Positions 45,379 through 64,000 of a stretch of DNA of 64,000 nucleotides are shown here, in pieces (positions within the stretch are counted from its first letter, which is position 1; every line of letters begins with the position of its first letter). Under the pieces are notes generated by a model, which ran no database searches, was not told the origin of the DNA, and saw only the letters and a program-made list of their open reading frames with translations. The translations under genes and the position numbers were made by a program. Source of the stretch: an uncultured Chthonomonadaceae bacterium (GTDB lineage: Bacteria; Armatimonadota; Chthonomonadetes; Chthonomonadales; Chthonomonadaceae); the NCBI GenBank assembly GCA_963835065.1, contig CAWIEK010000063.1, positions 1-64,000 on the forward strand, read 5' to 3'.

Positions 45379-46226
45379 ATGCGACTGGACACGATCATCA
45401 AAGACTACCTGCAAGCGCTGCGCGTCGAACAGGGCGCGGCACTCACCACCCACCGGGGCTATCAGTCCCACCTTCACCACTTCCACGACTGGCTGACGGC
45501 AAACGGGTATGCCGAGCCGAGCCTTGCCGAATTCACGGTTCCCGTTTTGCGCCGCTTCCTGTACTACCTGAGCGGCAAGAGCCTGCGTCCGCGTACCATT
45601 CGCAGCTACTTTCAGCCGTTGAAGGGCATAGGCGAGTTTCTCATCAGCAACGGATTGGCAACCGAGAACGCGGCAAAGGGCGTCAACCTGCCCAAGAAAG
45701 ACGCCGCGATCCGCAAAACGGTTTCAGATGAAGAAATCCGCCTGCTGCTGGACGCCTGCACCCGCGAACGCAACGCCCGCAAAGCCGCCCTCAATTCCGC
45801 CGTGCTGCATGTGCTGGTCTACGGGGCGCTTCGGCGTTCGGAACTGTGCGATCTGCATGTAGACGACGTGGCGCTTCCCGCCCCGAAGGACAAAAAGAGT
45901 AAGGGCAGCGTTCTGGTACGTTGTGGAAAGGGCAGCAAGTCAAGGAAAATCTACCTCCCTGATGTGGCGGTAACAGCCTTGAAGGAATGGCTTGCCGTGC
46001 GTCCGAAGGGATGCCGACACGACTTTCTGTTCACCTTCGACGTTCGCCGCCGCTTGTGGCATACAAGCCTGCACACGCTTTTCGAGGATTTGAAAGCCGT
46101 TGCGGGGCTTGCGGGGCATGACAACGTGCAGCCGCATAGCATACGCCACTGGCGGGCCAGCCGACCTGCTACGGAGTGGCGCGAACATTCGGGACGTGCA
46201 GGCGTTCTTAGTATTCGTGTTTTAAA
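45379..46226 (+). pseudogene. XerC/D-like tyrosine integrase, C-terminally truncated
   Basis: LVYGALRRSEL, GKGSKSR, PHSIRH; shifted frame gives DLLRSGANIRDVQAFL and then breaks off before GH and the catalytic Tyr. Confidence 0.85.
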
Positions 46227-46329
46227 CGTCAATTTCCTTTGTACTTGGAGACCGAATTTTACAAAAGTTAAAGAGGCTATTCAATGTACTTGAACAGCCT
46301 CCTTATACTTCCTCAAAGCGCGTTGTTAT

Positions 46330-56076: not shown

Positions 56077-56862
56077 ATGAACACTCCTCCCCCCGGTTCG
56101 CCAATTGAAGAAGACGCCGCGTTTGTCGAGATTGCGCCGCTGTACGACATGCTGATGACGGGTGTGCCGTATACGGAATGGATCGTGTACTTACGCAAAC
56201 TGCTGGACGAGCGCAAGGCGCGGCCCCGGCAGGTGTTGGATTTGGCGTGCGGCACGGGCAATGTGTCGGAACTGCTGGCCGGCGAAGGCTTTGCCGTGAC
56301 GGGCGTGGATATTGCGCCGGGCATGATCGCGCAGGCGCAGGCGAAAGCGGCACAGGCGAATTTGCCGATTGCGTATGCGGTGCAGGACGCGGCTCTGCTG
56401 GATCTGCCGGGCAAGCGGTTCGATTTGTGCGTGTCCCTCTTCGACAGCCTCAACTACATCACCGACCCCCTCCGATTGCAGATGGCGATGGAGCGCGTGG
56501 CCGCGCACCTGACCCGCAACGGCCTGTTCATCTTCGACCTCAATACGGAATACGCCCTTGCCAACCACTTCTTTGACCAGAACAACCTGAGCAGCAAGGA
56601 CCGCCTGCTGTACGACTGGAAAAGCGACTTCGATCCGCAAACGCGCCTGTGCCGGGTCCACATGAACTTTCGCTATACGGCGGAAGAGGGAACGGAGCGC
56701 GTATTCGAGGAAGTCCACTGGCAGTACGCTTACCGCACGGAGGAGATCGTTGCCATGCTGGAGCAGGCGGGTTTCGACCAGATCGCCACCTACAAAGCCT
56801 ACACCCTGCGCCAGCCCGTCCGCACTTCCGACCGCATCTTCTACGTCGCCCGCCGCCCGTAA
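56077..56862 (+). CDS. class I SAM-dependent methyltransferase
   Basis: VLDLACGTG, GVDI..GM, FDSLNY, GLFIFD. Confidence 0.92.
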   Translation: MNTPPPGSPIEEDAAFVEIAPLYDMLMTGVPYTEWIVYLRKLLDERKARPRQVLDLACGTGNVSELLAGEGFAVTGVDIAPGMIAQAQAKAAQANLPIAYAVQDAALLDLPGKRFDLCVSLFDSLNYITDPLRLQMAMERVAAHLTRNGLFIFDLNTEYALANHFFDQNNLSSKDRLLYDWKSDFDPQTRLCRVHMNFRYTAEEGTERVFEEVHWQYAYRTEEIVAMLEQAGFDQIATYKAYTLRQPVRTSDRIFYVARRP

Positions 56863-57158
56863 GGGCTTTGCCATGAACAGAAGCAAGCATTTGTTGGTGA
56901 AGGTAGAACAGGAAGATACCGGCTGAAACAGCAGTGGTTTACACGGTTTGACCATCATGGAGATTGTCTAAACTGAATGGCTACCTTCTTATGGAAGTAT
57001 TGCGAAGCCGTTATTAATCGTGTGCGTTATGGATCGTTGCCAAAGGCAGAAGCGCGGATACGCGACAAGACAAGCGGGGAAACAGTTGTTGTCTTCACAG
57101 TCAGCGACGCTTTTGTGTTTACAGGAATGGTTTATAATGTTCGCAGGAGGACAGGAAC

Positions 57159-57398
57159 ATGAGTCTGACACTCGACGATACACGCCTGCTATATAGCCCA
57201 ACTTGTGCCTTATGTAAGCACCTCAAATCCGCTATGACGCCGATGTGTGATGCTTTTCCCACAGAAAACGGCATCCCGGACGAAATCTGGACGGGAAGGA
57301 ACGATCATCATCAGCCCTATCCCGGTGATCACGGTATTCAGTTTGAACATCGGAAGCAACCGACCAAAGCGGCGTCACAAGAAACCGTTTCGCGTTGA
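57159..57398 (+). CDS. small Cys/His-motif protein, copy 1 (79 aa)
   Basis: CALCKH..CDAFPTENGIP.EIW.G.NDH.QPYPGDHGI.FE; AGGAGG RBS; TATAAT 57133. Confidence 0.8.
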   Translation: MSLTLDDTRLLYSPTCALCKHLKSAMTPMCDAFPTENGIPDEIWTGRNDHHQPYPGDHGIQFEHRKQPTKAASQETVSR

Positions 57399-57444
57399 TG
57401 CTGTTGTAGCAATGGCGGCTGCCCCGCCCAGTCTAATAAAATCG

Positions 57445-57490
57445 CCTGCGCCCTCCCGTCTGCATCTTCTACGTCGCCCGCCGCCCGTGA
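57445..57490 (+). repeat. duplicate of the methyltransferase 3' end
   Basis: GCATCTTCTACGTCGCCCGCCGCCCGT identical at 56834-56860 and 57462-57488, with further degenerate match upstream. Confidence 0.9.
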
Positions 57491-57500
57491 GGTGTTGCTT

Positions 57501-58340
57501 ATGCCCTGCGCCCTTGTGCTGCCATTGAAACCTCTGAATGTCGCGCCGATGCCCGAAGCCGTCAATGACTGCGCCCACGCCGCGTTTTTCGCACTGATTG
57601 ACAGCGTGGATGCGTTGTTGGCGCAGCGTCTGCATGGCATGGAGGAGCGCAAGCCGTTCACGCTGTGCCCGCTGTACGGAGAACCGCGCGGCAAGGATGC
57701 GCGGACGGGCGGCCCCCTTGTGCCAAGCGGCCTGCGCCTGACCCTGCTGGATGACGCGCTGTTTGCGGTTGTCGCGCACGCGCTGCTGGCGAATACAGCC
57801 GGGGCAATCCTGCGGCTGGGTGAGGCGCATTTCACGCCAACGGCGGTGTGGGTGACGGCGGACGCGCATCCGCTGGCGGGGCAGGCGGCGTATGCGGATT
57901 TGTACGGGAAGGTGGAGTCGCCCGAAACATTGACCGTGACCTTTGAAACGCCAACAGTGTTTCGGTCGCAGAAGCGCGATGTGCTGTGGCCGGAGGCGCG
58001 TTTGCTGTGGCAGTCGTGGGCGCGGGCATGGGCGGCGTTTGCGCCTTCCGTGTGCCGTCTGCCGGACGAAGCGCAAATTCTGGACTGGGCGACGCAAACG
58101 GGGGTGACAGGGCATAAACTGCAAACGCGAACCGTGCCGTTGACGGGAAGCGGGCAGGCGGGTTTCACGGGGTTTTGCGCCTACGACCTGAGCGCCCTGC
58201 CCCTGGAAGCGCGGCGAACCTTGAATACTCTGGCCGCCTTCGCCTTTTACGCGGGCACGGGCCGCAAAACCGCGATGGGCATGGGGCAAACGCGCTGCCA
58301 GCCGAACCAGCGCAAGCAAGGGATAAGGGATAAGAGATAA
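57501..58340 (+). CDS. cas6: CRISPR endoribonuclease Cas6
   Basis: KPFT, F.TPT.F, GFTG...Y, Gly-rich loop FAFYAGTGRKTAMGMGQ; adjacent to array. Confidence 0.92.
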   Translation: MPCALVLPLKPLNVAPMPEAVNDCAHAAFFALIDSVDALLAQRLHGMEERKPFTLCPLYGEPRGKDARTGGPLVPSGLRLTLLDDALFAVVAHALLANTAGAILRLGEAHFTPTAVWVTADAHPLAGQAAYADLYGKVESPETLTVTFETPTVFRSQKRDVLWPEARLLWQSWARAWAAFAPSVCRLPDEAQILDWATQTGVTGHKLQTRTVPLTGSGQAGFTGFCAYDLSALPLEARRTLNTLAAFAFYAGTGRKTAMGMGQTRCQPNQRKQGIRDKR

Positions 58341-58744
58341 GAGTATGTAGAGTCATCGTCGAAATCTTGGCAATGCAGCGCTTCCAGCCCGATGTCTCAT
58401 TGTGTCAAATTGTAGGAGAGAGGCGTCGTGGCCTCCAAAGCGTCAGGGCGAACGGGAGGGGTGGGACATGGGCCTGTACCTCCTTTGCTGAGTGAGTAGT
58501 TGATAGTTGATAGTTGATAGTTGATAGGAACTACCAACGTTCAGCCTTTGTGCCTGGATAGTAGACACTTGTGCTATTTAGACAGGATGTGTGGGGAAAA
58601 GGTTCACTGTTTTTGTGTTGTTTGGCTCTTTTTTTCATCTTTTTTCCATCTTTTTTGCTGGATGGTTGCTGTTGGCGTCGGGCAGGAAAGGGGAGAGGGC
58701 GCTTGCCTATTCCGGTTGGACCGGCAGGATTTGCCTGCCTGCCG

Positions 58745-58922
58745 GCGCGAACCGGAAGTGATGGCGGCGCACGGTAGAGGTTCGCGCTGGTTAGGAGGCG
58801 TTACACCGACAATTCCTGTCAGGAAGCGGTGAAATCATCAAAACGGTCGAAAAATATTTGCAAAAAAGTGGTAAAAGAAGGAGGAATATGTCAATCAAAG
58901 GCAGAATCAAGGCATACTACCC
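58745..58922 (+). promoter_or_regulatory. leader of CRISPR array 1
   Basis: non-coding, A-rich; GCGCGAACC/GGTTCGCGC inverted motif; TCGAAAAA..GCAAAAAAGTG shared with leader 2. Confidence 0.65.
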
Positions 58923-60159
58923 GTTGCAACGCCCGTTTGCCCCTCACGGGGATTGAAACCGCTTAACTACATTCGCGAATCTTGAGTAACATTACGCCTC
59001 GTTGCAACGCCCGTTTGCCCCTCACGGGGATTGAAACTGCCGTCTGGAACGCGCCTGTCTACCTGTTCTGGGCGTTTCGTTGCAACGCCCGTTTGCCCCT
59101 CACGGGGATTGAAACCCTTGATTGCGTCAGCATCGATCGTCGAAGCATTTCATGTTGCAACGCCCGTTTGCCCCTCACGGGGATTGAAACCTTGACTCAA
59201 ACTGTGTAGTGATGTCACGTTGTCTTGTTGCAACGCCCGTTTGCCCCTCACGGGGATTGAAACCTGACACAATGTTGCAACTCGCATTCATGCGTTAACG
59301 TTGCAACGCCCGTTTGCCCCTCACGGGGATTGAAACATGCGTCTCGGCATGACTCGTACTCTAAGTACGCGTTGCAACGCCCGTTTGCCCCTCACGGGGA
59401 TTGAAACCGCAACATGCGCACTGCGCAGGTTGCAACGCCCGTTGCCTCTCACGGGGATTGACAACGCTCGATCTGCCAGTGCACGGCAGGTTGCAACGCC
59501 CGTTTGCCCCTCACGGGGATTGAAACGTCATTCGGCAGCATGCGTAAGCCAGGTTGCAACGCCCGTTTGCCCCTCACGGGGATTGAAACATCATTTGCTG
59601 CGTATCGTTATCAACGCGGATTGGGCATGATTGGCAAGTGTATGCAACGTCCGTTCGTTTGCCCCTCACGGGGATTGAAACTCTGTCAAGCTGCGATGCG
59701 GCAGTTGCAACGCCCGTTGCCCCTACGGGGATTGAACATTCGAATCGCGGCGCTAATCAGTTGCAACGCCCGTTTGCCCCTCACGGGGATTGAAACGATC
59801 TGCCAGCGCGTTGTCAGACATCGAGCATTGCGTTGCAACGCCCGTTTGCCCCTCACGGGGATTGAAACATCCGAACCTGCCGGATACCGCTCTCGTTGCA
59901 ACGCCCGTTTGCCCCTCACGGGGATTGAACGATGCCACCTGCAGCGTTCTGGCGCAGGTTGCAACGCCCGTTTGCCCCTCACGGGGATTGAAACCTTTGC
60001 AAGCCGGTCTTCCATGTACGCCAGGCTCACGTTGCAAGCGTTGCGCCGTGTGAATTGCAACGCCCGTTTGCCCCTCACGGGGATTGAAACTCAGACGGTT
60101 GTAATGTCGGCAGCGAAACTTTGTTGCAACGCCCGTTTGCCCCTCACGGGGATTGAAAC
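58923..60159 (+). CRISPR. CRISPR array 1, 18 repeats, consensus GTTGCAACGCCCGTTTGCCCCTCACGGGGATTGAAAC (37 nt)
   Basis: repeats at 58923, 59001, 59079 ... 60123; spacers 21-60 nt; several central repeats carry indels. Confidence 0.97.
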
Positions 60160-60221
60160 TTAGGCGACAGCGGCAAATTGGTGTACAATAGAAAAAACCG
60201 TTCGGAGAAGGAGGCCAGGCT

Positions 60222-60440
60222 ATGAAAGGGCATATCGAATCCGACAATTTGCCTGTGGTAAGTCAAACATGTTTCAGTTGCCGCCACTGGCAACCAGGCA
60301 ATAGGACATGTGCCGCTTTCCCGGAAGGTATTCCTCTGCCAATTTGGATGGGTGAAAACAATCACCGACAGCCTTATGCCGGCGATCATGGCATACGCTA
60401 TGAATCAGTACAACAGCCCGTTTTAGCCAAAGCCTCTTGA
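60222..60440 (+). CDS. small Cys/His-motif protein, copy 2 (72 aa), located between CRISPR repeats
   Basis: CFSCRH..CAAFPEGIP.PIW.G.NNH.QPYAGDHGI.YE; AAGGAGG RBS; TACAAT 60184. Confidence 0.85.
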   Translation: MKGHIESDNLPVVSQTCFSCRHWQPGNRTCAAFPEGIPLPIWMGENNHRQPYAGDHGIRYESVQQPVLAKAS

Positions 60441-60460
60441 CACGAGTACGCGAAGCGCGA

Positions 60461-60568
60461 GTTCGATCCGAGCGCTTCCCCTCACGGGGATTGAAACTCT
60501 GCGTTTCCTCTCTGTCGAATAGATTTATAGAAGTTGCAACGCCCGTTTGCCCCTCACGGGAATTGACT
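60461..60568 (+). CRISPR. one-spacer mini-array: divergent repeat, 35-nt spacer, degenerate array-1 repeat
   Basis: GTTCGATCCGAGCGCTTCCCCTCACGGGGATTGAAAC (60461-60497); GTTGCAACGCCCGTTTGCCCCTCACGGGAATTGACT (60533-60568). Confidence 0.85.
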
Positions 60569-60593
60569 GAGATTATCCATAGAAACGCAAAAA

Positions 60594-60624
60594 CACCCTC
60601 CTACGGGTTTTTCGTAAGAGGGTG
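60594..60624. terminator. hairpin after the mini-array, between convergent transcripts
   Basis: CACCCTCCTACG-GGTTTTT-CGTAAGAGGGTG. Confidence 0.55.
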
Positions 60625-60676
60625 ATGTTAGAAGGGAAAGGCAGCGACAAACATTCAGGAAAATGGACGGCTATAT

Positions 60677-60994
60677 TCAGCAACCGGAGAGCGTGACGGG
60701 TGAGGACGCGACTACTTCAACGGGGTTGTTGGCGCTGATGGGAGTGAACTCCAGCAGAACAATTGCGATGCCGTTGCCAAGACGCTGTTCAATCACAATG
60801 TCTGCTTCCTCGCCGTTCCGGGCATCGCGGCAGAGCCTTTGCAGTAGTTCCGCATCCGTCACTTGCGCCATTTGTGAAAACAATTTGCGCTTGCCGTCCG
60901 GGCGCGTCACGATTTTGGAGTAGGCGAGCATCGGCGGTTCATCTTGCGTTAAGCCATGAATTTTAACGCGCATCTTTACGGTTGTCTCGATCAT
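60677..60994 (-). CDS. hypothetical protein (105 aa)
   Basis: GGAGGA RBS before ATG 60994; overlaps the end of the upstream gene. Confidence 0.6.
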   Translation of the reverse strand: MIETTVKMRVKIHGLTQDEPPMLAYSKIVTRPDGKRKLFSQMAQVTDAELLQRLCRDARNGEEADIVIEQRLGNGIAIVLLEFTPISANNPVEVVASSPVTLSGC

Positions 60995-61320
60995 TGTCTC
61001 TCCTCCGGCCACGCTGCAAAACCGGCAGACGTTCCAGCACGGGCGGCAACCTTTCCAAATCCTCTCCACTTCCGCCTGTCGGAATGTATTCCATGCGGAA
61101 CAGGTCAAAGACGCCTTCTTGATTGTACCGTCTTCCAAGCAAAATCACTTTGCGCATAACTGCGATCAGGAAAAACGCTCACCGAATACAGGCGCTGCCC
61201 TGCCTGATCGCCAAAGTACAAACTAAAGGTTGCGCCGCCGTTTGCCTCATGCAATTGCAAGATCGTTTCGGATGCTTGTTCAACGTCCTGTCTTGCAGGC
61301 AACTCCGTATCAGAGCGCAT
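60963..61320 (-). pseudogene. hypothetical gene with frameshift or internal deletion near 61155
   Basis: NGGATFSLYFGDQAGQRLYSVSVFPDRS in one frame; LLGRRYNQEGVFDL..MEYIPTGGSG in another. Confidence 0.5.
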
Positions 61321-61384
61321 TAAGTACGATTTGAGAGTGTTTGCCACACGAATAGAATTCATCAACAGAACGGAATTGTCCTGC

Positions 61385-61639
61385 ATGATCAAGACGATAC
61401 AATGTGCTTTTTGCATCCACTACGAACCGGACAGAAAGCCACAGAGCGGCGAACAGAGGTCGCTTGCGCGTGGGTGTTGCGCGGCCTTTCCTGATGGCAT
61501 CCCGGAGGCAATGGTGGAGGGGCGGCATGACCACCGCCTGCCGTATCCGGGTGATCATGGAGTTCGATTAGAATTAATGCCGGGACTTACGCCAGCATTA
61601 TTGGGCGATTTGCCGGAGCCAATGCGGAAAGCCTCTTGA
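61385..61639 (+). CDS. small Cys/His-motif protein, copy 3 (84 aa)
   Basis: CAFCIH..CCAAFPDGIP.AM..GRHDH.LPYPGDHGV; TTGAGA-16-TAGAAT upstream. Confidence 0.8.
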   Translation: MIKTIQCAFCIHYEPDRKPQSGEQRSLARGCCAAFPDGIPEAMVEGRHDHRLPYPGDHGVRLELMPGLTPALLGDLPEPMRKAS

Positions 61640-61706: not shown

Positions 61707-61735
61707 TTGACAAATCGGCAAAAACGTTGTAGAAT
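61707..61735 (+). promoter_or_regulatory. near-consensus sigma70 promoter upstream of the array 2 leader
   Basis: TTGACA-17-TAGAAT. Confidence 0.7.
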
Positions 61736-62036: not shown

Positions 62037-63368
62037 GTTCAAATGAAGGGCTTCCCCTCACGGGGATTGAAACGTTATCGGCACGCTGACCTCATATTGC
62101 CCAGAGCGCTGGTTCAAATGAAGGGCTTCCCCTCACGGGGATTGAAACGTCGTTAGCTGCGATGAATTGCTCAGTTTCTTGCTAGTTCAAATGAAGGGCT
62201 TCCCCTCACGGGGATTGAAACGGGCATGTACCATGAAATTCATTCCTAACCTCTCGTATGTTCAAATGAAGGGCTTCCCCTCACGGGGATTGAAACGTGA
62301 CTCCGATCGTCCAGCATACGGTGCCTCGTACTGCCGTGTTCAAATGAAGGGCTTCCCCTCACGGGGATTGAAACGCGATGGCCGTCCTCGTCACAGTTGC
62401 GATGATCCGGCACGCGTTCAAATGAAGGGCTTCCCCTCACGGGGATTGAAACGTTCCGCATGCGGCCAGCGAGGCTCTGTACCTGCTGCTATGTTCAAAT
62501 GAAGGGCTTCCCCTCACGGGGATTGAAACGGCAGACGCTTCCAGCGAATCAGATGCTTCGCATGCGGTTCAAATGAAGGGCTTCCCCTCACGGGGATTGA
62601 AACGCCCGTACGCATGCAGTATCGACGATCGTGCAAGCTTAGCCTGTTCAAATGAAGGGCTTCCCCTCACGGGGATTGAAACGCATGCGATGCAGGTGAT
62701 CGCATGTGCTATCGCTGTCGGGGTTCAAATGAAGGGCTTCCCCTCACGGGGATTGAAACGACCATGATCTAGAGACATTGAGCGTAGCTACCTTGACCTG
62801 TTCAAATGAAGGGCTTCCCCTCACGGGGATTGAAACGTCTGATCGGCATATAGCCGTTTATGAGCCTGCCGCCGTTCAAATGAAGGGCTTCCCCTCACGG
62901 GGATTGAAACGGTCAGCTCCGCCAACTTGACGTATTGCGAAGCTGCGCGGTTCAAATGAAGGGCTTCCCCTCACGGGGATTGAAACGACAAGACTTCCGA
63001 TGAATGTCGTTCACGAGCTTCATACGTTCAAATGAAGGGCTTCCCCTCACGGGGATTGAAACAGTGACATGCGATGCACGAAGCGTGTCATGCTAGATCG
63101 GCTCGTTCAAATGAAGGGCTTCCCCTCACGGGGATTGAAACGCGCCCGTCAGCGAGCAATCCCATGGCCCTTGGTCCGTTCAAATGAAGGGCTTCCCCTC
63201 ACGGGGATTGAAACGTCAAGTGGCTGCCACACCATTCGCAGTAGCGCTCCACGTTCAAATGAAGGGCTTCCCCTCACGGGGATTGAAACGACTTCACGAC
63301 CTGTCCTGACGTTCAGCCAGCTGGACGCGACGTTCAAATGAAGGGCTTCCCCTCACGGGGATTTGAGT
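62037..63368 (+). CRISPR. CRISPR array 2, 18 repeats, GTTCAAATGAAGGGCTTCCCCTCACGGGGATTGAAAC (37 nt), last repeat degenerate
   Basis: 17 identical repeats plus a degenerate terminal one; 17 spacers of 36-42 nt. Confidence 0.98.
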
Positions 63369-63452: not shown

Positions 63453-64000
63453 GTGCTGTTTGGGGAACTGACGCCACTTCAACGCCTGAGCCTGCTGCCC
63501 TGGCTGCCTGCGCCTGATTTTGCGCCGCTTGCCCCGGAAGAAGCGGACGTTTTGCGGCAGGCGCGGGACCTTGCCGGGGATTTCGGACGCTTTGCCCGTT
63601 GCGCTGCAAACCCCGTTTGCCGGGCTGCGCGTTCCCGCCATAGGGGATATGCCCGGATGCCTGCCGCCGCCCGTCACCTACTGGCCGCTTTCTCCTGCCG
63701 ATCCGCCCGATGTTCGCCCGCCCGATATTGCCGCTTGCCTGCGCGATTGGCAGGCCGACGTGAACGGGCTGAACCTGCTTCCCGCCGTTTCTTTTTCGCG
63801 CCGCTACGCCGCTCTGATGGGACTGGCGCAATCCCATGCGGCCTGTCTTGGCCTGCCCGGTCAGCCCGACATTCCCCTGCTGCAAAGCCGCCGTTTGTGG
63901 AGCGCCCTTGCCGCCTGCCTGTGGACGCTGCGGCAAACACCCGGCGACGGGGAGGAACTCGCCCTGCTTGTGGCCGATCTGTCCGGCATCCAGTCGTACC
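63453..64000 (+). CDS. cas10: Cas10/Csm1-like protein, 5' part (runs off window); degenerate HD region; probable +1 G frameshift at 63576-63580
   Basis: manual translation ends QPDIPLLQSRRLWSALAACLW...ELALLVADLSGIQSY, matching the Csm1 pattern PD.SL..H...TAA.A.CL...LLV.GDLSGIQ.FI; GGAGA RBS before GTG 63453. Confidence 0.78.
   Translation, partial: MLFGELTPLQRLSLLPWLPAPDFAPLAPEEADVLRQARDLAGDFGRFARCAANPVCRAARSRHRGYARMPAAARHLLAAFSCRSARCSPARYCRLPARLAGRRERAEPASRRFFFAPLRRSDGTGAIPCGLSWPARSARHSPAAKPPFVERPCRLPVDAAANTRRRGGTRPACGRSVRHPVV

Follow-up and report, generated by a model that had tools for sequence, protein, structure and literature searches.

Three small open reading frames (ORFs) with a shared cysteine- and histidine-containing motif lie around CRISPR arrays in a 64,000-nt stretch of DNA from an uncultured Chthonomonadaceae bacterium (contig CAWIEK010000063.1, positions 1-64,000, referred to as the window; source assembly GCA_963835065.1, 8.0 Mb, denoted G000). 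Judging from sequence and gene context, we lean towards the view that they encode orphan antitoxins, that is, immunity proteins against MuF- or portal-fused effectors delivered by the virion, which hosts would have kept and sometimes captured as oversize CRISPR spacers. An earlier note on the window had placed copy 1 (57159..57398, + strand, 79 aa) before cas6, copy 2 (60222..60440, + strand, 72 aa) inside array 1 and copy 3 (61385..61639, + strand, 84 aa) before the leader of array 2, and the ORFs, their positions and the shared motif were all confirmed. The two main points are a nameless family, without a solved fold, in the position of the immunity gene behind MuF effectors, and whole genes of this family that are bounded by CRISPR repeats. 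As anatomy, the repeat-bounded capture is real.

The family is large and lacks a name. Profile searches returned 8,410 representatives when clustered at 50% identity (E up to 0.001) and 868 proteins in a 90% set, with matches in 42/401 genomes of the phylum and in 6/122, 6/201 and 3/301 genomes of three other groups. The closest named relatives of the three window proteins are Chthonomonadaceae records. None of the three matched Pfam, NCBIfam or PADLOC, and the sole library match was PHROG 33375, with no function assigned (E 3e-6 to 3e-4 for copies 1-3). In 149 aligned sequences C17, C20, C30, A32, P38, H48 and D55 were invariant (copy-2 numbering for H48). Of the histidines in the motif described in the earlier note, the invariant one is thus the later H48, and the His of CxxCxH is at least 90% conserved; rare losses of ligands occur beyond the 149 sequences, such as in the second family gene of the same-genus genome G001. 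A Cys3-His metal-binding knot would be the natural inference from this conservation. The AlphaFold2 model of copy 2 contained little regular structure (predicted local distance difference test, pLDDT, 84.7; predicted template modelling score 0.70), and three methods, sequence search and Foldseek included, found no match in the PDB. Matches in BFVD were uncharacterised phage proteins only, and those in the ESM Atlas were nameless, largely viral clusters. No prior description of the family, or of whole immunity genes as spacers, was found in the literature searched, with most subscription journals and all supplements outside its coverage. The domain is also found as two to four tandem repeats per protein or fused to longer proteins (locus L086, 4995-6032; P0121-P0160). 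Separately, between three and six diverged family genes stand in tandem in L352 (G067:C81, 863-2934), L023, L128, L257 and L385-L390 (L-numbers denote the loci compared), and some of these runs carry conserved 30-75 nt repeats between the genes, resembling poly-immunity arrays.

In viruses, the family gene normally sits behind an effector gene. We took the best 80 loci of 165 viral relatives, which gave 74 distinct genes, and assigned partner domains with profiles from clustered upstream proteins. Directly upstream were a zincin (HExxH) domain in 27, a JAB domain in 19 and an ART-type domain in 16 (62/74), another family copy in four and no recognised domain in eight, and MuF was found upstream in 44/74. 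When 58 non-redundant picks of the 86 viral upstream ORFs were compared with Pfam, 37 carried Phage_Mu_F (31), Phage_min_cap2, that is MuF2 (four), or portal (two) domains, which confirms the link to MuF toxin genes that the earlier note had mentioned. The cellular set outside G000 comprised 231 distinct genes from 199 loci with flanks of 1.5-5 kb, where the upstream partner was JAB in 61, zincin in 40 and ART-type in 14, a tandem copy stood upstream of 26, and the remaining 90 were orphans without a partner. MuF was absent from the flank in 195/231, including 44 JAB and 30 zincin pairs, so the tie of the family is to the effector domain rather than to MuF.

The JAB partner has an invariant H61, H63 and D73, and its model (pLDDT 96.6) gave RadC and JAMM proteins as the top fold matches, although the best E-value was 0.002 and none fell within E up to 0.001; Pfam RadC matched 2/58 members (best E 0.0013). 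In two loci (L117 and L318) a pair of a JAB gene and a family gene was inserted at the host radC, with part of radC duplicated on both sides. On a quick tree of 175 rows, subfamilies followed the partner with 33 label changes compared with 76.9 after shuffling (0/200 shuffles as low), but kin share partner labels, so such a tree is no proof of co-evolution. The median length of the N-terminal part was 18 residues in JAB-linked and 6 in zincin-linked members. For the pair encoded on contig C49 of G000 (C-numbers denote contigs of this assembly), a complex model scored 0.57 while the best control scored 0.00; runs shared at least 67% of contacts, and the partner had pLDDT of at least 71. Scores up to 0.60 were given by 18/157 solved complexes and also by both passing mismatches (2/215), and the model weakly supports binding of the C49 family protein to its JAB effector.

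Two of the three window copies still carry pieces of such an effector. Copy 1, in the JAB-linked subfamily on the tree, is preceded by a 61-aa ORF (56977..57162, + strand) whose stop overlaps its ATG. This ORF is an internally deleted relative of the intact 198-aa JAB partner on C49 (51% identity over 53 aa), while its last residues alone did not score above shuffles (526/1000). On either side of the module stands a 44-nt direct repeat, a duplicated methyltransferase 3' end, with the left copy at 56821..56864 and the right copy at 57449..57492 (both + strand, 89% identity); the right copy forms an att-like boundary and agrees with the gene end in relatives. Copy 2, JAB-linked on the tree, lies in sense to array 1 within a 301-nt oversize spacer (60160..60460, + strand). 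The repeat to the left of this spacer (60123-60159) is intact, and the 37-nt unit to its right (60461-60497) is a variant. The insert opens at the repeat edge with the last 21 codons of a JAB effector (60160..60225, + strand), and the stop of this remnant overlaps the ATG of copy 2. The remnant scored as a JAB-effector C-terminus by profile (beating 995/1000 shuffles, with 5/1000 as high) and is in register with the partner end in L118. After the insert come one ordinary spacer and a degenerate last repeat. Most array gaps in G000 are 26-45 nt compared with the 301 nt of the insert, and the next longest, of 170 and 82 nt, conceal degenerate units. A single crossover at one spacer was rejected for both G000 and the soil metagenome contig L430 (see below), since the two insert ends are not duplicates of each other in either. 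Read mapping gave short DNA contigs only, one of which covered 60189-60345 with 5 differences, and none bridged the repeat junctions. Copy 3 belongs to the zincin-linked subfamily, on a starred branch (96) with three zincin-linked genes from the same bacterial family. It has no partner remnant, and the profile score for a JAB end upstream of it was not significant against shuffles.

The earlier note had given each copy a -10 box of its own. This stood for copy 3, the only one with a full sigma70-like site (61331..61358, + strand; consensus match only, 10/12), whereas in copies 1 and 2 the hexamer taken for a -10 box is the pair of Tyr-Asn codons that close the upstream effector remnant; the scan as a whole gave 4 sites, compared with 3.0 +/- 1.9 after shuffling. 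These Tyr-Asn codons are part of a full -35/-10 pair in the intact C49 gene, the best among 69 JAB partners. The ends of JAB partners had a mean promoter score of 5.52 bits compared with 4.44 +/- 0.23 in synonymous shuffles (60/60 shuffle means lower, with an approximate matrix), and those of zincin and ART partners did not score above synonymous shuffles. Copies of different subfamilies share their last codons (KAS and stop; 60426-60440, 61625-61639, L006 6275-6290 and L099). This 3' end is common to copies 2 and 3, the C44 copy and one G001 gene, and may be a recombination or promoter site.

Searching G000 with the three-sequence profile gave eight family copies, with a clear gap in E-value from 1e-15 to 0.05: the three in the window and one each on C26, C62, C49, C53 and C44. 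No fourth copy was detected on the contig of the window, as had been noted for the window itself. Considering that the C62 copy is a near-identical duplicate of the C26 copy, seven are independent, and four of these lie away from arrays. As 0.31% of G000 is within 2 kb of an array, finding at least three of seven there beats uniform chance (P = 1e-6 if the copies are independent; 0.016 if the trio counts as one of 5 loci). The copies are not evenly scattered in G000, so the refuting condition given in the earlier note did not hold there, but the enrichment at CRISPR is small across genomes (7/231). Copies 1-3 are 37-44% identical to each other, and a local tandem duplication was rejected, with no DNA similarity among them by blastn and separate places on the tree. 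They are not local paralogues, as each has nearer relatives in other genomes than in the window. The three copies arrived separately.

Repeat-bounded family genes recur in other genomes. Between two CRISPR repeats we found 5/231 cellular genes, from 4 genomes, with two more abutting one repeat, and 0/74 viral genes. In Chlorobium (L136), a 353-nt insert has the degenerate terminal repeat on one side and, on the other, an array of 52 repeats with cas1-cas2 alongside. This insert is antisense and consists of the final 37 codons of a JAB gene plus a whole family gene. In Cyanaurora (L129), a 1,889-nt insert opens in the middle of a MuF gene at the repeat edge and holds MuF-JAB, the family gene and an additional phage-like gene before a degenerate closing repeat. 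In a Methanosarcinaceae genome (L179/L462), four CRISPR-DR7 units are separated by 491, 433 and 335 nt, and the gaps of 491 and 335 nt hold family genes with about 80% DNA identity over 100 nt to viral loci, while the middle gene of the row showed no viral relative. The DR7 units found in this genome (G1036; L462 1474-2880, L464 743-3615, L465 62-655) are nearly all 335-1,957 nt apart with genes between, and one ordinary 39-nt spacer was seen. The soil contig L430 has eight repeats; its 327-nt last spacer (551-877) comprises a JAB-like end and a whole family gene, and is closed by an intact final repeat. In G001, a CRISPR-DR9 unit is followed by a 5'-cut JAB gene and a family gene that runs into a degenerate unit (insert about 770 nt), without a regular array there; a second family gene, resembling copy 3, comes next. 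Solitary repeat units elsewhere in G001 and in G002, another genome of the same genus, had no family gene adjoining. In Blastocatellia (L133), the family gene lies 160 nt past the trailer, unbounded, with a remnant that is not significant.

These inserts share their anatomy. They are bounded exactly by two repeats in G000 (right unit variant), L430 (both intact), L136, L129 and L462, and G000, L430, Chlorobium and Cyanaurora have full-length units on both flanks. A JAB gene end forms the start of the insert in four loci (5, 0, 8 and 6 of 1000 shuffles as high), and in all four regular arrays the insert is the last or last-but-one spacer. No repeat-bounded family gene is incomplete, and wherever a partner is recognisable, this effector has lost its 5' side. 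Rfam names the repeats in three loci (CRISPR DR5, DR7 and DR9); at the gathering score it gave no call for those of G000, L430, L457 and Chlorobium, all of which except L457 are regular arrays with unique spacers. Five repeat-bounded cases among about 200 loci correspond to P of 2e-6 to 4e-3 under an assumed background of 0.1-0.5%, the measured 0.31% coming from G000 only. We also ran five targeted scans for further cassettes, in which each pattern covered one 30-nt distance window and one repeat ending. The fourth, of metagenome data, returned 14 stretches, 4 family genes and one cassette (L430), and the fifth returned 27 stretches and six loci with family genes, among them L179 again and a candidate (L457) with two unlike repeat-type units and no Rfam call. 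One locus, L365, is a tandem repeat and does not figure among the arrays counted. The suggestion of host-collected anti-toxin genes is consistent with these results. With whole repeat-bounded genes in several phyla, the tie to CRISPR goes further in detail than the earlier note had it. Many other copies are flanked by duplicated host sequence instead of CRISPR repeats, so the family gets into genomes by several routes.

The CRISPR locus of the window itself is decayed, and is left with cas6, the arrays and a cas10 stub. The cas6 gene (57501..58340, + strand) matched Pfam CRISPR_Cas6 (E 1e-18), with Cas6d as the top PADLOC model (E 3e-35). Repeat analysis gave array 1 (58923..60569, + strand) at least 17 units of a 37-nt repeat and array 2 (62037..63368, + strand) 18 units of a second 37-nt repeat, and the leader of array 2 carries a promoter-like site (61707-61735). 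In its middle part (59400-60060), array 1 has degenerate repeats and spacers of 21-27 nt compared with 34-42 nt elsewhere, from decay, slippage or assembly error. The unit that closes the copy-2 insert is a third repeat type with a single occurrence in the genome; its 3' 20 nt are common to both arrays, and it is closer to the array-2 repeat. The Cas10-like ORF starts at 63520 (63520..64000 in the window, + strand), extends beyond the window to contig position 64437 and is truncated at 305 aa, with weak Cas10 matches (E 6e-7) and leuS as the next gene on the opposite strand. None of the 34 window spacers compared had a convincing match within the compared loci or G000. Between array 1 and copy 3 lies an m4/m3 two-gene pair of unassigned function (60677..61350, - strand), with m3 broken over two frames. 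Homologues of the pair stand directly behind the methyltransferase gene in both same-genus genomes (L391 2347-3147; L392 3010-3774), and m3 and m4 each have 4-5 additional matches elsewhere in G000; the pair resembles a toxin-antitoxin-type module and matched no library, PADLOC included. In G001 and G002 the site after the methyltransferase gene carries this pair and other inserts, which makes it a genus-level insertion hot spot, and CRISPR and family genes are absent from it in the stretch compared. A short element at 58339-58600 recurs in many unrelated contigs with high summed depth and is probably a dispersed repeat of the lineage. The nearest integrase-like gene is a tyrosine-integrase-like ORF (Pfam Phage_integrase; 45379-46293), 11 kb from the copies.

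In the scheme that we propose, phages would pack MuF- or portal-fused enzymes in the head and inject them at infection, while the small downstream gene protects the producer. One scaffold would have split into subfamilies that match the JAB, zincin and ART effector domains. Hosts would acquire pieces of the phage operon, lose most of the effector and retain the antitoxin, at times with the 3' end of the effector and the promoter within it. Copy 1 would then have come in by an att-like insertion, which left the methyltransferase 3' end in duplicate, copy 2 as an oversize spacer flanked by CRISPR repeats, and copy 3 as a bare gene, all at the one hot spot. A retained small gene would render the host immune to that effector class, and several subfamilies would widen the cover. 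Array entry was most likely an aberrant Cas1-Cas2 integration of a long fragment, with both ends joined and the repeat duplicated, a route with which the exact boundaries and mid-gene starts are compatible. A double crossover through two spacers would also fit, while an integrase-driven prophage insertion would fit the trailer position but not the two full flanking units. Selection may retain a cassette while ordinary spacers turn over, leaving it as the oldest spacer at the trailer, and Cas6 processing would free a small mRNA from cassettes in sense orientation. In its widest form, the proposal is that bacterial and archaeal arrays occasionally take up a phage antitoxin gene entire, in the form of an oversize spacer, and keep it, adding protein-based immunity against virion-delivered MuF effectors to RNA memory, with a new Cys3-His fold acting on JAB, zincin and ART enzymes; we regard this as possible but doubtful.

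Several observations weigh against antitoxin genes kept by hosts and captured in arrays. No CRISPR repeat lies near 224/231 (97%) of the cellular genes, the background rate of long spacers was an assumed one, and three of the five scans gave nothing new (2 stretches, namely the Chlorobium control and a Methanospirillum locus without an array, then 0 and 0). Other long repeat-bounded stretches in the Methanosarcinaceae contain ordinary genes (134-aa and 430-aa ORFs), so the gaps are not specific to the family. The insert junctions in G000 rest on one assembly, and the C53 copy has a frameshift. It would be unusual for one 70-aa scaffold to inhibit three unrelated folds, the tree is poorly resolved (9/172 branches starred), and a complex score in the range of 0.57 is wrong more often than right without a prior. 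Related Armatimonadota account for much of the excess of embedded promoters at JAB ends, and a T follows the Tyr codon no more often than expected (15/52 compared with 14.1).

Some of these points recur in the view that the copies are neutral debris, in which prophage pieces entered the repeats and the hot spot by phage integration or recombination and decay without selection. The genus-level hot spot, the decayed CRISPR locus, the ordinary genes between repeats in one archaeal genome and the duplicated host sequence, rather than repeats, around many copies would all agree with it, and a known phage integrates into CRISPR repeats, mostly the terminal one, according to the available part of 10.1101/2020.10.09.333658. 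While that phage is described there as splitting one repeat via an 8-bp core, the flanking units in G000, L430, Chlorobium and Cyanaurora are full length, and the insert ends in G000 and L430 are not duplicates. Furthermore, the inserts begin mid-gene at the repeat edge, far from an expected attP, and only the effector is cut, at its 5' side wherever recognisable, with the family gene whole in every repeat-bounded case. On this evidence we consider debris rather unlikely. Alternatively, the protein may be a partner of the effector but no antitoxin, such as a metal-delivery, folding or loading factor for several MuF-fused enzymes, with the host copies as leftovers. JAB and zincin enzymes are both metal-dependent, a family that follows three unrelated folds would suit such a factor, and the weak complex score cannot separate inhibition from chaperoning. 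However, the family also stands behind ART domains, which are metal-independent, its gene is intact where the effector has been cut away (copies 1 and 2, Chlorobium and L430), and diverged copies occur in tandem runs (26/231; six in G067:C81), which makes this reading quite improbable to us.

The earlier note had placed the copies in a type III CRISPR locus and offered a new type III ancillary family as one reading. A type III ancillary protein or a CRISPR regulator would fit a locus in which cas6, two arrays and a cas10 stub lie among the three copies, and 37-nt repeats, as in several loci here, are of a kind that accompanies type III and I-D systems. The window does not hold a working type III system, given the 305-aa Cas10-like ORF, Cas6d as the best Cas6 match and the place of the Cas10/RAMP operons of G000, which are on C44 (96-102 kb) and on C48 (138-145 kb). 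None of the eight G000 copies adjoins these operons. Cas1 genes lie on C44, C49 and C15, with none at the window locus. When the flanks (1.5-5 kb) of the loci compared from other genomes were searched with single-sequence queries of the G000 Cas proteins, no Cas10, RAMP or Cas6 neighbour was found, and Cas1 was a neighbour in one locus. The Chlorobium copy is antisense in an array next to cas1-cas2, and the family is mainly tied to phage operons and matched no ancillary or defence model, so that a CRISPR accessory role is highly improbable. Taken all together, we still lean towards phage-derived antitoxins that hosts have kept.

With more than 8,000 nameless representatives, the family stands where an immunity gene is expected behind the most frequent kinds of MuF effector, and it offers a handle on the function of virion-packed enzymes and a way to ask how one small scaffold can meet unrelated enzymes. 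Whole genes that are repeat-bounded and cut on the toxin side were found in four named phyla and two domains, plus one contig without a taxon name. Standard array callers would overlook them because arrays get broken at long spacers. If selection keeps the repeat-bounded genes, arrays would double as gene-capture devices; if it does not, the inserts would still record a repeatable entry of long phage DNA into arrays.

Compared with a CRISPR spacer, the cassettes have the exact repeat boundaries, while the 301 nt in G000 exceeds the usual length of about 30-45 nt. AID and rAID clusters reportedly use a recombinase with its own recombination sites, and no such adjacent recombinase with sites was found here, the boundaries being CRISPR repeats or a duplicated gene end. 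In those clusters, judging from the available part of 10.1101/471110, hosts keep arrays of immunity genes without the toxins, and the putative immunity genes of the present family likewise gather in one locus (three copies here, two in L179 and tandem copies in 26/231), but the clusters described there face type VI secretion effectors, whereas the threat presumed here would come with a phage, and CRISPR repeats bound some of the cassettes. The phage AP1.1, as described in the part of the Varble preprint available (10.1101/2020.10.09.333658), likewise has its DNA within an array, in most cases at the terminal repeat; in contrast with its whole prophage, which splits one repeat via an 8-bp attP core and disables immunity, pieces of 0.3-1.9 kb from a head operon lie here between two full-length units. 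The JAB partner, the commonest one in cells, shares the HxH..S..D motif and a RadC/JAMM-like fold with Tox-JAB-1/2 and RadC-like JAB proteins (PMC3482391, PMC5512222, both in part), and the immunity proteins listed in the available parts of these sources for Tox-JAB are Imm65 and Imm-NTF2-2, not the family found here. Unlike Tox-JAB and RadC, this partner has a long helical C-terminal part, and Pfam RadC matches 2/58 members. Panacea is said to use one antitoxin scaffold against several toxin families. Dmd with ART toxins (PMC9503650) and Imm-SUKH (PMC3482391) similarly pair one small family with unrelated toxins, as far as the available parts of these sources go, while the family here has no sequence or fold match to solved structures. 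There is also a likeness to MuF systems, in which small ORFs (<150 aa) directly behind MuF toxin genes in the phage head module are assigned as immunity genes (Jamet 2017, PMC5576092, in its available part). Metallopeptidase and ART domains are among the MuF effectors in that source, and phage delivery of MuF-fused enzymes at infection is a proposal of PMC5576092 and PMC5512222, in the parts available. The position behind the effector is the same, as in the 62/74 viral genes here. However, the available part of PMC5576092 treats the immunity ORFs as unrelated and domain-less and names no family, whereas here one family stands behind at least three effector folds and occurs also in MuF-less pairs and as orphans. 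With regard to the cognate specificity of MuF immunity, this one family spans three folds, and its subfamilies appear to follow the partner (33 label changes against 76.9).

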